A stretch of DNA of 64,000 bases from a virus, in the IMG/VR virus record IMGVR_UViG_3300032782_000001, positions 116,404 through 180,403 of that record. One strand, written 5' to 3'. The notes under the pieces were generated by a model. That model saw only the letters and a list, made by a program, of their open reading frames with translations. It was not told the DNA's origin and ran no database searches. Positions 2,982-25,406 of this stretch are shown piece by piece. Each line of letters opens with the position of its first letter. The stretch's first letter is position 1. A program made the translations under genes and the position numbers.

Positions 2982-3179
2982 TTAGCTCAACATCACGACT
3001 TTTACGATGTGATACTCGCAATTCTCGATTGATACCGATCCGTCAGGGTCTTCTCCTGGGGATCTCGCAGTAACCTGTCCACAACGTCTACATTGGTACA
3101 CATTCATCTCTTTACCGCAAGCTTTGTCCATTATTTTGTTTATTTCAGGATGTTGTAATACCTCCCAAACATGAGCCAC
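2982..3179 (-). CDS. small zinc-ribbon protein of the VM-tail family (ends ...KVVMLS)
   Basis: CGKE...CRRCGQ...NCEYH then VVMLS-stop; minus-strand member of the family. Confidence 0.45.
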   Translation of the reverse strand: MAHVWEVLQHPEINKIMDKACGKEMNVYQCRRCGQVTARSPGEDPDGSVSIENCEYHIVKVVMLS

Positions 3180-3202
3180 CTTTAACAGTACGTCGAATGT
3201 AA

Positions 3203-3862
3203 ATGCATGTCATGGATCCATATGGTATTGAACCTAAAAAGAGGAACCAGGTTCGTCACACTCCGCCATCTCGATCGAATTTTTTGAATCGATTCCGAGA
3301 TAGGATCGTAAAGTGTGATGATGATTGGATTATCGTAAGGAATTGGGCCTCTGAGCTCAGCATGCCAATACTGATAGTAGCATCGTTGTTCAATTCGCTT
3401 GTAGCTGAAGGGATTTTGGAAGGACCTCTTCCCGTTCCTGTCGAAGAAGAACATCTCAAGTACGGCGGCCGAGGCATTTGTTTCTTAAATGGGAAATGGT
3501 ATTACAGAGATTTCGAATTTGAGAGATTTTACAAATGGGGATCTCGCGGTTGTCAGAAAGTCAAGAAATGTGGTAAATCCGAACTGCCAATAGGCAGGCA
3601 ACCTTCTAAAAGGACTATTTCCAAAAAGGCACAGGAAAGGCCTTTGAAACTGTGTGAATGGAACGGGAAAGGATACCGTATTAATCGAGACGCACCAACA
3701 TTCAAGGAAGCCGCGAGAACACAGGTGCAGGTTACTACGGGTTCTATTTGTAATCGATGCGGCATTCAGTTGGATTTCAATGGGAAACATTCTAGAAGAA
3801 GCAGAGGACATACTCGAATTAAATGTAACAAATTTATCGTAAAAACTGTCATGGAAAGCTGA
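3203..3862 (+). CDS. zinc-ribbon-containing protein, C-terminal ...KTVMES
   Basis: 219-aa ORF; CNRCGIQ...KCNKFIVKTVMES tail matches family consensus. Confidence 0.5.
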   Translation: MHVMDPYGIEPKKRNQVRHTPPSRSNFLNRFRDRIVKCDDDWIIVRNWASELSMPILIVASLFNSLVAEGILEGPLPVPVEEEHLKYGGRGICFLNGKWYYRDFEFERFYKWGSRGCQKVKKCGKSELPIGRQPSKRTISKKAQERPLKLCEWNGKGYRINRDAPTFKEAARTQVQVTTGSICNRCGIQLDFNGKHSRRSRGHTRIKCNKFIVKTVMES

Positions 3863-5004: not shown

Positions 5005-6384
5005 GTGAACCATGATACGAAGATCGCCATGATTCTTCATGCGGCGAGGTCTTTAGTATCGAGGAAGCAACCCGCTTCCGTTATTGAAATTTTTGCTGGC
5101 TTCGTTAATCCTACCAGCAACAAGCCGATTAGCTCAAGCAGAAAACACGCATTATTGGACCATTGGGTGTCCAATGGATGGGTTTCGCGAAGGCGTGTGA
5201 AAGGGATCGATCATTATTCGGCGCTCTCCGTTTCAGACTTGGAGGCGGTTGTAGAAGTACACGAGGAAGAAGAAGCAGACATGAAAAGAAAGCGCTACAG
5301 TCGTCTGTCCGAAGAGCTACACGGTAAAGGGCTAGTAGCCGTACGCGCTTTGAAGAAACTTCTATCCGACGAAACTCCTCAACCACGCACTAGTCTATTC
5401 ACCGTCTATCGAGGAGATAAGTTCCAAGAACGAGCAGCTCTGAGTCCTCCATGGCAAATGGAACTTCTCCAAGTTCTTACAGGGAATGGAGTCGTTGTGA
5501 AAATCGACGGCAATCCCACTCTTTACAAGATTGGAGACCATGAAGCGGCCCAAAATCTTGTAGAAGGGATTGAGCATCCATGCATCATTTCTCTCATTGA
5601 TCCTAACACTCCATGTGGGTTGGATCATGAGTCTATGAGACAGAGGAAACTGAACAAAGAACGTACTCTGAATGTGAAGGTTCCCACTCATGAGTCTATC
5701 CCCGAAGAGGAGCTTCCTACAGAATCTATCGTGACTACGTCCGAATCGGTCATTGATCAAGCTCCCGCGTTTCCAGCCGCTGTTCCAGCCGAATCGATCG
5801 AAGAAGAACCCAAGGATAAACTTCAAGAGAAAGAGGACGGTCTCCTTGAGACTATCCTTGAGCAAGTCTTAGATTCGATGAAAGCGCAAAATGCACTCAG
5901 TGAGCGCATTGCGAATCATGTGAAAGATCTCGGTGGGTACATGAAATCTACGAATGACTTCATGCATACGACCAAGGAGTCACTGAAGCATATTGATCAG
6001 AGAATCGTCAGATTGGAAGAATTAATTCGTTCGTCTAATTCTGATTCTAAGCAGAAGGCCGTTTCGAAATTAGAAGAGAAAATGATTCATGACGTCATTT
6101 CCAAATGTGACGAATCGGTCCGATTGGCGACGCAGTCTACTATAACGAGCTTGAAGATTGAAATCGGCTCGATGAAATCTGGATTCCAATCAATGGAATC
6201 GGCCATTGCAGAAGTGGCTGCGTCCATGGCATCCATTTCAGCACACATTCAAAAACCTCGCTCGAAAATGTCCAGGAAGGCCCGATGGGGTCACATCCTC
6301 GGGCGTCTCGATGTAGTTGTGAACGATCTTGACACCTTGAAGGAGTTGGCATTGGAAACTGTTCCGGGTTCCAATTCTTCATAA
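5005..6384 (+). CDS. hypothetical protein with acidic and coiled-coil regions
   Basis: 459-aa ORF; EEEEAD acidic patch and long helical C-terminal half. Confidence 0.55.
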   Translation: MNHDTKIAMILHAARSLVSRKQPASVIEIFAGFVNPTSNKPISSSRKHALLDHWVSNGWVSRRRVKGIDHYSALSVSDLEAVVEVHEEEEADMKRKRYSRLSEELHGKGLVAVRALKKLLSDETPQPRTSLFTVYRGDKFQERAALSPPWQMELLQVLTGNGVVVKIDGNPTLYKIGDHEAAQNLVEGIEHPCIISLIDPNTPCGLDHESMRQRKLNKERTLNVKVPTHESIPEEELPTESIVTTSESVIDQAPAFPAAVPAESIEEEPKDKLQEKEDGLLETILEQVLDSMKAQNALSERIANHVKDLGGYMKSTNDFMHTTKESLKHIDQRIVRLEELIRSSNSDSKQKAVSKLEEKMIHDVISKCDESVRLATQSTITSLKIEIGSMKSGFQSMESAIAEVAASMASISAHIQKPRSKMSRKARWGHILGRLDVVVNDLDTLKELALETVPGSNSS

Positions 6385-12161: not shown

Positions 12162-12494
12162 ATGAAGCCTGATCAGATCATTTCGCTCACCGAGAAATAC
12201 GAAGAAGCTTTCCGGCGCGTCGGTACCAGGCCTAAGGAGATCGACAGGAGCATTACGCCTCCTGGTATGCAGAAGGCATGCGAACACGCAATGTGGATGC
12301 TCCCTAAGATCCGGGAGATCCTCCAGGAGGGAAAGCATGCGAAAGCTGAAAGGTGGTTTTGTTTCGTACAGAGCGTTATGTGGCAGGCAGGATTCTTCAG
12401 CATCAATGATATGCGTGATCACAACCGGACCCCCGAAGAGGAAAAACCTGTTAGCCCGAATCCGGATGCCTGTTCTAATATCCTTGAAGATTAG
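12162..12494 (+). CDS. hypothetical protein
   Basis: 110-aa ORF. Confidence 0.5.
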   Translation: MKPDQIISLTEKYEEAFRRVGTRPKEIDRSITPPGMQKACEHAMWMLPKIREILQEGKHAKAERWFCFVQSVMWQAGFFSINDMRDHNRTPEEEKPVSPNPDACSNILED

Positions 12495-13021
12495 CTGTCC
12501 ATTACCTCCGTCGCAATCTTGGACATGTCAGCGTTAGCCTCAAGCAGGACCCACAAGACGCGGGCATCTGCCGCTACCATAAATTTCTCGTGTCGCCAAT
12601 CCTGGCAGTACCAGTCATAACCTTCGTAAGTTTTCTTTCGTTCTCCTTGATGGAGACGGGTCCTACAAGGACGTACTTGCAGCATTACATGTCCGTTACT
12701 AAGTTCAGGGAGAACTTCGAAATGGAGCATGGCGATAGTCGTGGAAGTCGGGTTTGAAGAATAATCTTTGTGCTCGGATGTTGACCATTTCACCCAAAAA
12801 CGGTTACCACCACTGCAATGAATATGGATATGGTAGGAACAAAATTCAACGGATGCTTTTAGCCTGTCAAATTCTTGGATCAGGTGAGAAATTACTGAGT
12901 CATGTAGCTCACTGAACATCATTCCAGATAATACGTTCAGACTTTGCTGTAAAATGAATCCGGAGGTTTCCATGTCAGTTATTGTAGAGATCAGGGCCGC
13001 CGAAGGCGGAGATGACGCCAA
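12491..13021 (-). CDS. hypothetical protein (ends ...ATEVMDS)
   Basis: 176-aa minus ORF; no competing plus ORF; C-terminal VM-tail. Confidence 0.45.
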   Translation of the reverse strand: MASSPPSAALISTITDMETSGFILQQSLNVLSGMMFSELHDSVISHLIQEFDRLKASVEFCSYHIHIHCSGGNRFWVKWSTSEHKDYSSNPTSTTIAMLHFEVLPELSNGHVMLQVRPCRTRLHQGERKKTYEGYDWYCQDWRHEKFMVAADARVLWVLLEANADMSKIATEVMDS

Positions 13022-13638
13022 ACTCCTCGTTGAGGATCAACTCCGAGTCTATGCGCGCCGCGCGGTTCGGAGGGGTCTTTGACCTTGAAGTAACCGAACG
13101 CCTTCCGGGCCTCGTCGTCTTCCGGTTAACCGGTAAAGGTGCAGACGAAGCTTGGAAGGATGAAGCCGGTGGACACCGCTGGCAAAGGATTCCCCCAACC
13201 GAAAAAAGGGGTCGAGTCCAAACGAGCACTGTGACAGTGGCAGTTTTGCCAGAGCCCACAGAAGCTCAGATCCGGATCGATCCGAGGGACATAGAAGCGT
13301 CCACTACTCGTGGATCTGGTCCTGGTGGTCAAAATCGAAATAAAGTGGAAACGTGTGTCATTTTGAAGCACATCCCTACGGGGCTAACTGTTCGTTGTGA
13401 ATCTGAGAGATCACAACATCAGAATCGAGCTATTGCCCTGGCACTCCTCCGGGCCAGATTATGGGACGCTGCACAGAAGCAGGCCATTGGAGCTCGTGAT
13501 GATAACCGGAAACGTCAAATTGGATCCGGAATGCGTGGAGACAAGAGAAGAACAATTCGATGCCAGGATGGGATAGTCAACGATCACTTGACTGGAAGAC
13601 ACTGGAACTTCAAAGAATATGAGCGCGGTGACTGGTAA
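12972..13638 (+). CDS. PrfH-like class-I peptide chain release factor (lacks domain 1; GGQ motif); expression requires programmed +1 frameshift at CTT-TGA-C (13077-13083)
   Basis: Frame 0 (12972..13082) gives MSVIVEIRAAEGGDDAKLLVEDQLRVYARRAVRRGL-stop. The +1 frame from 13081 continues DLEVTE...GGHRWQRIPPTEKRGRVQTSTVTVAVLPE...SGPGGQNRNKVETCVILKHIPTG...RSQHQNR. The two frames together align with RF1/RF2 domains 2-4. The shift site is GGAGGGG-T-CTT-TGA-C, the canonical prfB cassette. Confidence 0.8.
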
Positions 13639-14001
13639 CTAGCGCTTCATCAAGAAACTCAAAGCCTTATTGTGGAAAGTGACGAGACCTTTACCGGCCT
13701 CGTCTCTCTCTGCAGTTCCGTGGTCGGAAACCAGCCATTTACAGAGGACTTCTCGAGCTTCCACAGCCATGGCCTTTGCTTCATCATCTTCTATTTTATC
13801 CAGAATATCAATGGTCTCCTCGATCATACCCTGGAAAATAGAATAGGTTCCAGAGATCTTACTCATTCGCTGGCGAAAACTTCGCCAGTTCACTTGCTGG
13901 GTAGAATCTTGGAAACCCTCGGTGCACCAATGACATATGGCGTCGGATTCACCTCCGCAGGCCTCGCAAACCCTAGGTGTATCTGCCGGATCGTCCATCA
14001 C
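13639..14001 (-). CDS. hypothetical protein with N-terminal Cys cluster
   Basis: 120-aa minus ORF; CEACGG...CHWC. Confidence 0.45.
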   Translation of the reverse strand: MMDDPADTPRVCEACGGESDAICHWCTEGFQDSTQQVNWRSFRQRMSKISGTYSIFQGMIEETIDILDKIEDDEAKAMAVEAREVLCKWLVSDHGTAERDEAGKGLVTFHNKALSFLMKR

Positions 14002-15699: not shown

Positions 15700-16431
15700 T
15701 CAAATGCCGGTGAGTTCGCACCACCGGTCTATCACCATTTGAGCGTATGCAATGGATGGCATTCCGTAGGCACCCAGAGAAAAGGCATCGTTTACTTCAA
15801 CAACAAGTGTCTTTCCTTCCGACGTGACTCCGAGGTCCAGAGAATAAGCCACAGGCGCGCTTTTAAACGCCAGTACACATTTTTGCGCAATTTCAAAATC
15901 CGGATATTTCGTGAAGTCACCTCGATAATGACGACAGTTCACAATCAGTCCTCGATGAATGAACAGTCTATATTCAGCCACGAAGTCCACCACATCAGAG
16001 GCTAAGATTTCGAATTCATCCGGGAATGAAGCCGTCTTGATAAGATCCCGGATTGCGCCACTCGTTACAAACCCTGTGAACGCTTTACCACTTTTGAGTG
16101 GCTTGATGAACATGTGATGATTATTTTCGAGACGCTCCCTAACATATTTCATGTTGGTTTCCCACATATGTCGACCATAAAATTCGCGAATTTCTTCGAC
16201 AGGTCCGTGATCTAATGTAGGTTGCACAATTCCAAGTCTATCCAGAGCTCGACGCACAGGGCCGATCCATCCATGAACTAACGTCTCTTTGCGGAGTTCT
16301 AGTGAATCGATTTCCTCGGCCGTGAAAGGAATTGTTTCTATACCAAGCATATAACATCCATACCACAGGGAAAAAGCGGTCTCATTAATGAACTCACCGT
16401 TTTTCTTCTGGATGTATGCGAGATCAATCAT
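15700..16431 (-). CDS. ATP-grasp fold protein (putative)
   Basis: FIKPLKSGKAFTG, EYRLFIHRG and DLGV..GKTLVVEVND resemble ATP-grasp lysine, central and C-terminal motifs. Confidence 0.5.
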   Translation of the reverse strand: MIDLAYIQKKNGEFINETAFSLWYGCYMLGIETIPFTAEEIDSLELRKETLVHGWIGPVRRALDRLGIVQPTLDHGPVEEIREFYGRHMWETNMKYVRERLENNHHMFIKPLKSGKAFTGFVTSGAIRDLIKTASFPDEFEILASDVVDFVAEYRLFIHRGLIVNCRHYRGDFTKYPDFEIAQKCVLAFKSAPVAYSLDLGVTSEGKTLVVEVNDAFSLGAYGMPSIAYAQMVIDRWCELTGI

Positions 16432-18459: not shown

Positions 18460-18533
18460 CCGCCAGTAGCTCAGTTGGTAAGAGCACGAGCCTTATAAGC
18501 ACGGAGTCGGTGGTTCGATCCCACCCTGGCGGA
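18460..18533 (+). tRNA. tRNA with anticodon TAT (Ile, AUA-reading)
   Basis: Cloverleaf: acceptor CCGCCAG/CTGGCGG, D-arm GCTC-AGTTGGTAA-GAGC, anticodon loop CTTATAA, T-arm GGTGG-TTCGATC-CCACC; no CCA encoded. Confidence 0.6.
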
Positions 18534-18534
18534 C

Positions 18535-19768: not shown

Positions 19769-20185
19769 ATGTATCAGATGAGTGAAGAAGAGCGCGCGGA
19801 GCGCTCCAAGGTGAAGGCTCTCCACGCGGCTATTCGCGGATGCGGCCCGGTTGGTGACCGGTATCGCAATCTCGCGTGGGGTTTCGTGCGCGGTTTCCCA
19901 TACCGACGCATTGAGCGGAACCATCATGTTCAAATGTTGGACAACGCCAACTATGAACAGATGGCGAAGCTCGACAACCATTATCGTCAACTTGACGGTC
20001 AGTGGTTTTATGAACACAATATGCCCTCGGAGACTTGGCTCTTCGACACCTTGAAGAAGTTCCTCCCGGAACTTAAGAAGGAACAGATTGTCACGTGGAT
20101 GCGTGACATGTCCGGTGCAATTCCTCCGCCGCCACCTCGGCCAAAGCGGACGCGTGAAGAAGCGATGGCTCACGCGGGGGTGTAG
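19769..20185 (+). CDS. hypothetical protein
   Basis: 138-aa ORF with good SD; Pro-rich C-terminus. Confidence 0.6.
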   Translation: MYQMSEEERAERSKVKALHAAIRGCGPVGDRYRNLAWGFVRGFPYRRIERNHHVQMLDNANYEQMAKLDNHYRQLDGQWFYEHNMPSETWLFDTLKKFLPELKKEQIVTWMRDMSGAIPPPPPRPKRTREEAMAHAGV

Positions 20186-20523
20186 TGGACAAGCTATACG
20201 TCATCGTCCGGGGGGATCTTCCCCCCGGAGACCAGGCCGTCCAATCCATGCATGCGGCGTTGAAATACGCCAAAGAGCATTCGGATTGGACGGCCTGGTA
20301 CGAGGCTTCCAATTACATTGCGCTCCTAAGCGTGCCTAATGAGCGAGAGCTCATGAAATTGCTGATGAAAGCGCGAGATCGAGATCTCAAATTCGCAGCT
20401 TTCTGCGAGCCGGATCTAGATGATTCTATGACTGCTATTGCACTTGAACCCGGGTTCCGATCCAGGCGCTTGTGCAATGGGCTCCCGCTTGCGCTTTCGG
20501 AAAACCAAAATATTCCGGCGTAA
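20185..20523 (+). CDS. peptidyl-tRNA hydrolase, PTH2 family
   Basis: KLYVIVRGDLPPGDQAVQSMHAAL matches PTH2 core (VxVVRxDLxMGxGKxAAQCxHAA). Confidence 0.7.
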   Translation: MDKLYVIVRGDLPPGDQAVQSMHAALKYAKEHSDWTAWYEASNYIALLSVPNERELMKLLMKARDRDLKFAAFCEPDLDDSMTAIALEPGFRSRRLCNGLPLALSENQNIPA

Positions 20524-22718: not shown

Positions 22719-22795
22719 GGGTCCGTAGCTCAACTGGCTAGAGCTGTCGTTTTCAACTCGAATGGTTGCGGGTTCAAATCCCGTCGGGCCCTCCA
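22719..22795 (+). tRNA. tRNA-like gene; anticodon positions 34-36 read TCA (UGA-reading) but anticodon stem weak (3 WC pairs)
   Basis: Acceptor GGGTCCG/CGGGCCC, D-arm GCTC-AACTGGCTA-GAGC, T-arm GCGGG-TTCAAAT-CCCGT, encoded CCA; loop TTTCAAC. Confidence 0.4.
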
Positions 22796-22819: not shown

Positions 22820-22892
22820 GCTTCCGTAGCCAAGTTGGTCAGGCAGCGGCTTTCAATTCCGCCACACGTGGGTTCGAGTCCCACCGGAAGCG
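22820..22892 (+). tRNA. tRNA with anticodon TCA (opal-suppressor type)
   Basis: Acceptor GCTTCCG/CGGAAGC, anticodon stem GCGGC/TCCGC (4 bp + C-T), loop TTTCAAT, T-arm GTGGG-TTCGAGT-CCCAC. Confidence 0.55.
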
Positions 22893-22913
22893 CTCGCTAG
22901 GTACTGTGGTACC

Positions 22914-25029: not shown

Positions 25030-25406
25030 GGGCCTGATCGGCTTCGACTGGGGAAGAAAGAACGATCTGCGTGCAGGCGGCGCTCGATCCGCCATAACCA
25101 ATCGAGCCGACACAGCTGCCAACGACAACGGCGCCCTCCGCATCGCGGCCTAAAAAACCGCGCGGATGTCTTCCCGGCGAAACTGCTTCCAGTAACCGGA
25201 TGAAGGCACGAACCCAAGAGGAAGCTGGCCGTGGGAGTAACCCTCCTTTTATCCCGACGCCTCAGCCGGGAAGGCGAGATCAAGTCTAGGCTGACAGTGC
25301 GGAAAGACGCGCAAACTCAGTCGCAGGGGATACGGCGACTACGCACGTGAACGAGGGTTGTTTGGACAACTTCAGGACGCGGGTTCGATTCCCGCCAGGT
25401 CCACAA
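25030..25406 (+). ncRNA. ssrA: tmRNA (ssrA); predicted tag ANDNGALRIAA
   Basis: 5' GGGCCTGATCGGCTTCGACTGGGG is like E. coli GGGGCUGAUUCUGGAUUCGACGGG. 3' GGACGCGGGTTCGATTCCCGCCAGGTCCACA is nearly identical to the E. coli tmRNA 3' end. Acceptor pairs 25030-25036 with 25396-25402. Internal ORF GCC AAC GAC AAC GGC GCC CTC CGC ATC GCG GCC TAA. Confidence 0.8.

Follow-up and report, generated by a model that had tools for sequence, protein, structure and literature searches.

How a class-I release factor could be made from a gene that is interrupted by a stop codon after 36 codons is the question raised by a locus in the IMG/VR virus record IMGVR_UViG_3300032782_000001. The locus was analysed within a window of 64 kb (positions 116,404 to 180,403 of the record; one strand, on which all positions below are numbered). 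A first-pass annotation made from the letters alone had proposed that a contiguous release factor is obtained here only by a programmed +1 frameshift of the kind known from prfB. All elements of the proposed cassette are present in the window sequence, and its anatomy is established, with every feature on the plus strand. An initiation Shine-Dalgarno (SD) sequence, GGAGG, read from the sequence at 12962-12966, precedes the ATG at 12972, and homologues that begin at an equivalent M-x-x-I-V-E-I-R support this ATG as the start. The open reading frame (ORF) that opens here, ORF0 (12972-13082), has 36 codons and a TGA (13080-13082) and is translated as MSVIVEIRAAEGGDDAKLLVEDQLRVYARRAVRRGL, which corresponds to the first strand and helix alpha5 of release-factor domain 2 with its conserved AEGGDDAK tip. 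At its end lie an internal SD-like stimulator, GGAGGGG (13069-13075), whose core GGAGG (13069-13073) is located three nucleotides 5' of CTT, and the shift site CTT-TGA-C (13077-13083), consisting of CTT (13077-13079), TGA (13080-13082) and C (13083). The +1-frame ORF (13081-13638) has 185 codons, ends in ...ERGDW before a TAA (13636-13638) and encodes what remains of domain 2 together with domains 3 (GGQ) and 4, as seen from its matches to Pfam PCRF and RF-1. Frame 0 past the TGA at 13080 displays no release-factor homology and many stops; another TGA comes only one codon later, and a TAA 20 codons past the first TGA. As the release-factor homology moves to the +1 frame, a contiguous factor does need the shift at CTT-TGA-C.

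The string GGAGGNNNCTTTRRC occurs once in the window, against 0.03 occurrences expected from shuffled sequences. Sequencing error is excluded because a separately assembled 337-kb ENA contig has the same cassette and encodes a protein that is 97% identical. No sign of a stimulatory RNA structure was found, as the fold of 13050-13150 is not better than that of shuffles (z = -0.5); a Rfam scan of 12400-13700 gave no match, and a promoter and terminator search around the release-factor gene gave nothing above chance.

Sequence comparison places the trans-frame product of 221 amino acids (aa), 36 from frame 0 and 185 from the +1 frame, with RF1. Pfam PCRF covers its residues 2-89 in a single stretch across the junction, and the NCBIfam RF1 model covers residues 2-207 (model positions 105-316), again in a single stretch and with 212 bits. 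Compared with the RF1, RF2 and PrfH models, as the first-pass annotation had suggested, the fusion was confirmed to be continuously homologous across the shift and to match RF1 best. The RF1 models TIGR00019 and NF001859 score 212.4 and 211.3 bits (their equivalog cut-offs of 400 and 423.25 are not reached), the RF2 model scores 135 bits and the PrfH model TIGR03072 scores 90.3 bits, below its cut-off of 166.65. In a search of the PDB, residues 88-298 of T. maritima RF1 (1RQ0) were aligned in one stretch (E = 2e-48), and the matches reached 168 bits for RF1, about 97 bits for RF2 and 50-54 bits for PrfH. Identity to canonical RF1 amounts to 37-42%. At the junction, RRGL/DLEV stands opposite RKGW/NLEV of RF1, and G-L/D-L-E aligns gap-free with uninterrupted homologues (e.g., P0009, RRGLDVELVE).

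An AlphaFold model built with an alignment of 46 uninterrupted database homologues has a mean predicted local distance difference test score of 85.6, with values of 92-95 around the junction, which is modelled as a turn between helix alpha5 and the next strand. The model matches ribosome-bound RF1 with a template modelling (TM) score of 0.87-0.88 and a root-mean-square deviation of 2.3-2.4 A, and the PrfH structure with a TM score of 0.64. According to these comparisons, homology and predicted fold are continuous across the junction. The product starts at RF1 residue 88 (1RQ0 numbering), where RF1 domain 2 begins; the approximately 105 N-terminal residues of RF1 that form domain 1 are absent, and no domain-1 ORF was found upstream of ATG 12972, which agrees with the earlier claim of a protein without domain 1. 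Homology and model together identify the product as an RF1-derived class-I release factor with domains 2-4. The label 'PrfH-like' was right with respect to the missing domain but not with respect to family membership, because the product scores below the PrfH cut-off, fits the PrfH structure less well than RF1 and has no RtcB among the called genes within 10 kb of its gene.

The determinants of RF1 function are kept in the product, namely Q71, P74-x-T76 and T84 (with Gln and Thr as third-base readers) and the GGQ motif of peptidyl-tRNA hydrolysis (G118-G119-Q120, 13324-13332), which is invariant in both family alignments. The tripeptide 'anticodon' PPT (P74-P75-T76, 13192-13200) falls on the PxT position in the alignment to RF1, so that the recognition loop had been correctly described as RF1-like. 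Within ORF0, residues E6, A10, E11, G12, G13, D15 and A16 are invariant among 28 relatives; in RF1, it is this helix alpha5 tip, AEGGDDA, that touches the first base of the stop codon. Because the RF1-type determinants are kept, the 'tripeptide anticodon' rule for release-factor stop specificity, reportedly established by Ito et al. in 2000, predicts that the product reads UAA and UAG. It most likely terminates at both codons and needs no stimulation by RF3.

In order to follow the cassette through homologues, DNA was taken for 64 IMG/VR loci, 80 bacterial-genome loci and several published records, and the loci were sorted by the reading frames of their N- and C-terminal release-factor homology. 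A +1 shift is required at 111 loci, 21 have an in-frame stop with both halves in one frame, and nine are uninterrupted. The cassette was then counted in 102 non-identical frameshift genes, which come from phage contigs in IMG/VR, from huge phages already published and from genomes that are mostly of Myxococcota. Without exception, CTT directly precedes the stop in these 102 genes, while it makes up 6.8% of the Leu codons elsewhere in them. GGAGG is found exactly three nucleotides upstream of CTT in 61 genes, with the same spacing as in the window and as the proposed prfB-type architecture demands, and weaker SD-like variants are present in 23 more. The base after the gate stop is C in 83 genes and G in 16. 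The gate itself is TGA in the window and in 72 of the 102 genes, which fits the UGA gate of the first-pass annotation, but it is not tied to this codon, since TAG is used in 28 genes and TAA in two; TGA and TAG gates even alternate between 97%-identical genes (L089 and L096). The interruption is found at the same codon in frameshift genes down to about 40% identity, and both halves stay open and conserved as protein across relatives. Upstream of the site, the variability in frame 0 is 0.78, 0.73 and 1.43 bits at codon positions 1, 2 and 3, and frame 0 is thus the translated frame there, because variation is mostly at its third base. A conserved second frame-0 stop that would limit readthrough was not found in these genes; the next stop follows after 1 to more than 1,000 codons. 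The cassette is, in sum, strictly conserved in more than 100 genes.

The tripeptide is more variable than the cassette. It is PPT in 52, PPN in 31 and something else in 19 of the 102 genes, with variation at positions 1 and 3 (PPT, PPN, PPS, PPG, SPT; the third residue being T, N, S or G), and a few family members have lost the recognition loop by deletion. No correlation of the tripeptide motif with the gate codon was found across the 102 genes.

Among proteins, database searches gave two length classes, one of uninterrupted sequences of about 222 aa and one of about 195 aa that covers only 84% of the query. The shorter proteins begin with GGVFD, GGVFS or GGVFN, which is the +1 reading of GGAGGGGTCTTTGAC with TGA, TAG or TAA. 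The exact 16-mer of the cassette, CGGAGGGGTCTTTGAC, is not specific alone, as only nine of its 32 hits in IMG/VR lie in RF1-like genes. In about ten viral contigs (L160, L163, L167, L171, L175, L177, L185, L186, L188 and L189, all from IMG/VR) it falls in a conserved region that is unrelated and has no release-factor homology. The +1 reading of these loci is 'DAVALVDYDGLE...', which probably reflects a conserved gene read in another frame or on the opposite strand.

A different kind of interruption is seen in a distinct phage sub-family, where the gate stop is in frame, mostly as GGC-TGA-AAG-CAC, and lies exactly on the Trp codon of RF1; all other Trp codons of the gene are TGG. The IMG/VR loci L040-L055 share the string GGC-TGA-AAG-CAC-C around their in-frame TGA (at about 6103-6117 of each locus), and several of them have a tRNA-Trp(CCA) in the tRNA array alongside. 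The gene of the AT-rich 600-735 kb phages of Al-Shayeb et al. 2020 likewise has one or two in-frame TGAs (LR745206, LR756502, LR756504 and LR756501, corresponding to loci L153-L156). These are the largest phage genomes published, with 634-735 kb and 28-32% G+C. Their release-factor match lies at about 3001-3650 of each locus, and the TGAs are found at varying positions, within a few tens of codons downstream of the shift position of the window. As no in-frame TGA was seen in the long neighbouring ORFs of L153-L156, these TGAs look like gene-specific readthrough gates and not like genome-wide reassignment. The 485-kb phage LR745208 carries the frameshift cassette. A further copy with an in-frame TGA is found on 'plasmid 2' of Variovorax sp. 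WDL1 (NZ_LR594690.1, locus L146, 5971-6675), which RefSeq splits into WP_157103366.1 (hypothetical protein) and WP_068673472.1 (peptide chain release factor-like protein). This 816-kb replicon has 12 tRNA genes and an adjoining HNH endonuclease and resembles a phage tRNA island. Sequence comparison thus indicates that the early part of the gene repeatedly holds a stop that needs to be bypassed, by slippage or by readthrough. Homologues encoded in a single frame, which the first-pass annotation had named as evidence against its claim, do exist among the relatives. They do not refute the frameshift, because they are colinear with the trans-frame product, as is the case with shift-less prfB genes, and the claim stands.

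Several other explanations of the locus have to be considered. The gene could be a pseudogene or an assembly error, in which a short RF1-like gene was disrupted by the insertion of one base and no longer gives a functional product. An intact form indeed exists, about half of the best-scoring protein relatives being uninterrupted ORFs of approximately 222 aa, and NCBI annotation handles such loci as truncated proteins. However, an accident of this kind would hardly leave the interruption at the same codon in 102 non-identical genes with an invariant CTT and mostly GGAGG at -3, nor both halves open and protein-conserved, and the separate assembly agrees with the window. Taken together, the conservation of CTT, the coding-type wobble and the gap-free junction exclude a pseudogene or sequencing error, and we regard this explanation as effectively refuted by the comparative data. 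If no frameshift took place, the locus might instead yield a 36-aa peptide and an N-terminally truncated factor from an internal start in the +1 frame (ATG 13012 or ATG 13051). The +1 ORF does have upstream ATGs, and many homologues are called as proteins of 170-214 aa. Yet the +1 extensions upstream of the site are unconserved and amount to a shifted reading of the cassette (the recurring 'GGVFD'), their starts are inconsistent, being M, L or V and lying at different distances, the invariant AEGGDDA tip falls within the 36 residues of frame 0, which would form one folded domain with the downstream strands, and the wobble in frame 0 is of the coding type. Independent expression of the two halves appears very unlikely on these grounds.

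Readthrough, with the TGA read as an amino acid by a phage tRNA(UCA) or after genome-wide reassignment, is suggested by two tRNA(UCA) genes located 9.6 kb downstream, by the sister group in which an in-frame TGA joins both halves in one frame, and by the phage 'code-change modules' that are known to pair RF1 with a TGA suppressor (bioRxiv 2021.08.26.457843). For the window gene it is refuted, because the homology continues in the +1 frame, while frame 0 after the TGA is without homology and soon stops; TGA is moreover the commonest stop in the window (39 of 85 ORFs), where no convincing in-frame TGA was seen. We consider the chance that readthrough explains this gene to be negligible. More weight is due to the possibility that the frameshift is real and serves true autoregulation, the short factor having broadened its specificity so that it recognises its gate codon, be it UGA, UAG or UAA. 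All three stops are used as gates, TGA and TAG swap freely between near-identical genes, tripeptide positions 1 and 3 are variable, unlike the strict P-x-T of RF1, and the previously known release-factor genes with such a cassette (prfB and Mimivirus R726) have been interpreted as autoregulated. On the other hand, most members keep P first and T third in the tripeptide together with the RF1-type Gln and Thr, and the tripeptide is uncorrelated with the gate codon, so that we judge this variant unlikely, if worth keeping in mind.

We therefore posit that a programmed +1 frameshift of the prfB type makes the 221-aa factor, which we consider probable from the comparative evidence; the prfB mechanism is the most likely one because every defining feature of the prfB cassette is present and conserved. 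Ribosomes would initiate at ATG 12972 and translate 36 codons, until the P site holds tRNA-Leu on CUU and the A site a UGA-C at which termination is poor. The GGAGG three bases upstream would pair with the 16S rRNA tail, and the peptidyl-tRNA would slip from CUU to UUU while the A site awaits a release factor. GAC (Asp) would be decoded next, and translation would continue in the +1 frame to the TAA at 13636, whereas a release factor that wins the competition would leave only the 36-aa peptide. Output should thus depend inversely on the efficiency of termination at the gate codon. With its UGA gate, the window gene would be set by the RF2 of the host and not by its own product, in line with the first-pass annotation, which had expected no autoregulation. 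In UAG-gated relatives, RF1 would set the output, probably along with the product.

The proposed regulatory logic, that is, the sensing of weak termination, has in our view about an even chance of being correct. Several observations speak against the proposed frameshift and its regulation in this form. Eighteen of the 102 frameshift genes have no recognisable SD-like element. Simple prfB-like autoregulation fails for most members, because their gate is UGA (72 of 102), which an RF1-type factor should not read, and the interchange of TGA and TAG in near-identical genes implies that the identity of the sensing factor seems to matter little. The codon specificity is itself uncertain, because the tripeptide varies and the loop is lost in a few members. 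UGA-decoding tRNAs are expected to compete with frameshifting, which is said to be the premise of a suppressor-tRNA study of RF2 regulation by Curran and Yarus from 1988, and the two tRNA(UCA) genes of the window, if active, would lower the output rather than raise it. Either the gate senses general termination capacity, or the specificity of the factor is broader than its motifs suggest. The factor may act as a back-up or supplementary terminator, in the translation module of phages as well as in Myxococcota.

The closest likeness in cassette structure is to prfB. The E. coli prfB cassette reads AGGGGG-UAU-CUU-UGA-C, and the prfB shift occurs at codon 25-26, in domain 1. Both systems comprise an SD-like element, a 3-nt spacer, CUU, a stop and C in the gene of a class-I release factor, both yield Leu-Asp, and in both some homologues lack the shift and are colinear. 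The family described here is different in being RF1-type and devoid of domain 1, in shifting inside domain 2 (codon 36 of 221, at the 'KGW/N' position of RF1), and in that a UGA-gated product is probably not its own sensor. The architecture of the prfB cassette is experimentally established (PMC12421855, PMC3711429), and its consensus has been given (PMC3711429). TAG gates, which make up 27% of the genes here, were found in none of 8,164 prfB genes, and in a survey of more than 12,000 genomes the prfA (RF1) genes were without a programmed frameshift (PMC12421855). Canonical RF1 (prfA) shares domains 2-4, a PxT-like tripeptide, GGQ and the Gln and Thr third-base readers with the present protein, which is without domain 1, remains below the equivalog cut-offs and has a gene that is predicted to be frameshifted.

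As for the claim that nothing similar was known from a viral release factor, it was too strong, because Mimivirus R726 and Megavirus mg280 precede the present case. In these genes, readthrough at UGA-C (Trp being proposed) and a +1 frameshift at CUU-UAG-C or CUU-UAA-C were tested experimentally in E. coli, and the CUU sites were found to frameshift (Jeudy et al. 2012, PMC3521657). They are the closest precedent, as virus-encoded release factors that need recoding at internal stops, and both kinds of recoding are also found in the present family. R726 differs in being of the eRF1 (eukaryotic/archaeal) type, in belonging to a virus of eukaryotes and in combining both events in one gene, while the present family is bacterial-type, also chromosomal, and uses one or the other event per gene. 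What stands of the novelty claim is that no description of such a cassette turned up for the short RF1-type family: neither the family nor its recoding was found in surveys of frameshifted genes (PMC3711429 and supplements), reviews of release-factor evolution, huge-phage papers or the full-text literature, of which most subscription journals lay outside the coverage, so that a prior report is possible.

PrfH, too, is a class-I release-factor paralogue; it has about 200 aa and no domain 1, but retains GGQ. It always comes together with RtcB, and its decoding region has diverged (PMC1586002, Baranov et al. 2006; PMC6514570, Burroughs and Aravind 2019), whereas the present protein is much closer to RF1 in sequence and fold and has no conserved neighbour; no frameshift has been described for prfH. 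The RF1 of the 'code-change module' of TGA-recoded Jade phages is described as an ordinary ORF in the standard code, and the lysis genes that adjoin it have TGA codons in frame (Borges et al., bioRxiv 2021.08.26.457843). The window resembles this module in that it combines a phage RF1-type factor with TGA-suppressor tRNAs in one genome region, and, as in a code-change module, the suppressor tRNA(UCA) matches the stop that the RF1-like factor should not read. It differs in that no in-frame TGA genes and no aminoacyl-tRNA synthetase were seen in the 64 kb.

The window gene belongs to a large family of short, recoded RF1-type genes that is conserved and has gone unannotated. Very few conserved +1 programmed frameshifts are known in bacterial genes, prfB being the textbook case, and the present family would add a second, independent release-factor lineage with a prfB-type cassette, at another protein position and commonly with UAG gates. 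Because the cassette position differs and UAG gates are common, the family offers a natural test of the requirements of the cassette and of whether the sensor must be the product. With a TGA or a TAG gate, the 30-nt cassette can serve as it stands to report on the sufficiency of RF2 or RF1, respectively. NCBI annotation misses the recoding and systematically treats such loci as truncated 'release factor-like' proteins, for which pipelines could add a recoding exception. No dedicated NCBIfam model exists for the family, and PHROGs holds only a full-length RF1-like family of unknown function.

More tentatively, the family might represent a third lineage of bacterial-type class-I release factors, compact, RF3-independent and possibly of broadened stop specificity, whose synthesis is triggered by a 'test' stop, through +1 frameshift or readthrough, during termination failure. 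We see this as a possibility that falls short of being likely. If it were true, Myxococcota would keep an inducible back-up terminator or rescue factor on their chromosome, and huge phages would carry the factor in islands of tRNA, tmRNA and Pth2 genes, where it could promote ribosome turnover during takeover. For phage biology in general, a regulated termination factor would be added to the tRNA/tmRNA islands of huge phages.

The bacterial loci are overwhelmingly from Myxococcota, including Minicystis rosea, Archangium gephyra and Pyxidicoccus fallax as well as many metagenome-assembled genomes of Polyangia, Kofleriaceae, Sandaracinaceae and Nannocystaceae. The cassette has an ordinary chromosomal setting in the majority of the 77 bacterial loci that were inspected, almost all of which are from Myxococcota. 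The window itself derives from a probable huge phage, judging by its gene content; the description as phage-encoded is therefore apt for this copy but not for the family, which is not restricted to phages. The closest relatives of the window protein among chromosomal copies come from Polyangia (66-69% identity). The bacterial copies stand alone, for example near mraZ, rsmH, DAHP synthase or COX15, and no tRNA arrays were found around them. In viral contigs, the gene is located within dense tRNA arrays of up to 35 tRNAs in 12 kb, and in one contig a tmRNA lies directly downstream of the release-factor gene. A conserved neighbour or partner gene was not found among 54 bacterial and 48 viral loci, nor was there a PADLOC hit to a defence system.

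The proteins of the window are mostly ORFans. It also encodes a sigma factor, a UvsX/RecA-like recombinase, a RuvC-like resolvase, a DNA methyltransferase, an HNH endonuclease and several PHROG families, and one 737-aa protein is also found in isolated phages; no phage structural gene was found in the 64 kb. Coding density is 86% in the standard code. Genome-wide reassignment of TGA was rejected for the window, TGA being the main genuine stop; ORF statistics under alternative codes were uninformative, and a codon-usage test for in-frame TGA gave one weak candidate only. In the 477 nt upstream of the release-factor gene (12495-12971), no gene is called in the sister contig, and there is no Rfam match and no promoter-like site above chance; a minus-strand ORF that overlaps this stretch (12491-13021) has no Pfam hit.

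Downstream, the RF1-like gene is followed by further genes with which it forms a translation and ribosome-rescue cluster of about 12 kb. These are a tRNA-Ile(UAU) (18460-18534), a PTH2-type peptidyl-tRNA hydrolase (20185-20523, plus strand; Pfam E = 1.5e-08), the two tRNA(UCA) genes (22719-22795 and 22820-22893, plus strand) and a tmRNA gene (25030-25406, plus strand), which lies about 11.4 kb from the release-factor gene, is full length (Rfam 111.9 bits) and has the tag ANDNGALRIAA. The two tRNAs are of normal size, with the anticodon UCA of opal suppressors, and score 56.7 and 55.1 bits with the Rfam tRNA model; ARAGORN labels them SeC. Discriminator U73 and an encoded CCA end are found in the first, G73 in the second. 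Between the release-factor gene and the tRNAs, an R2K-clade ATP-grasp protein is encoded on the minus strand (15700-16431; Pfam R2K_2, E = 1.7e-38).

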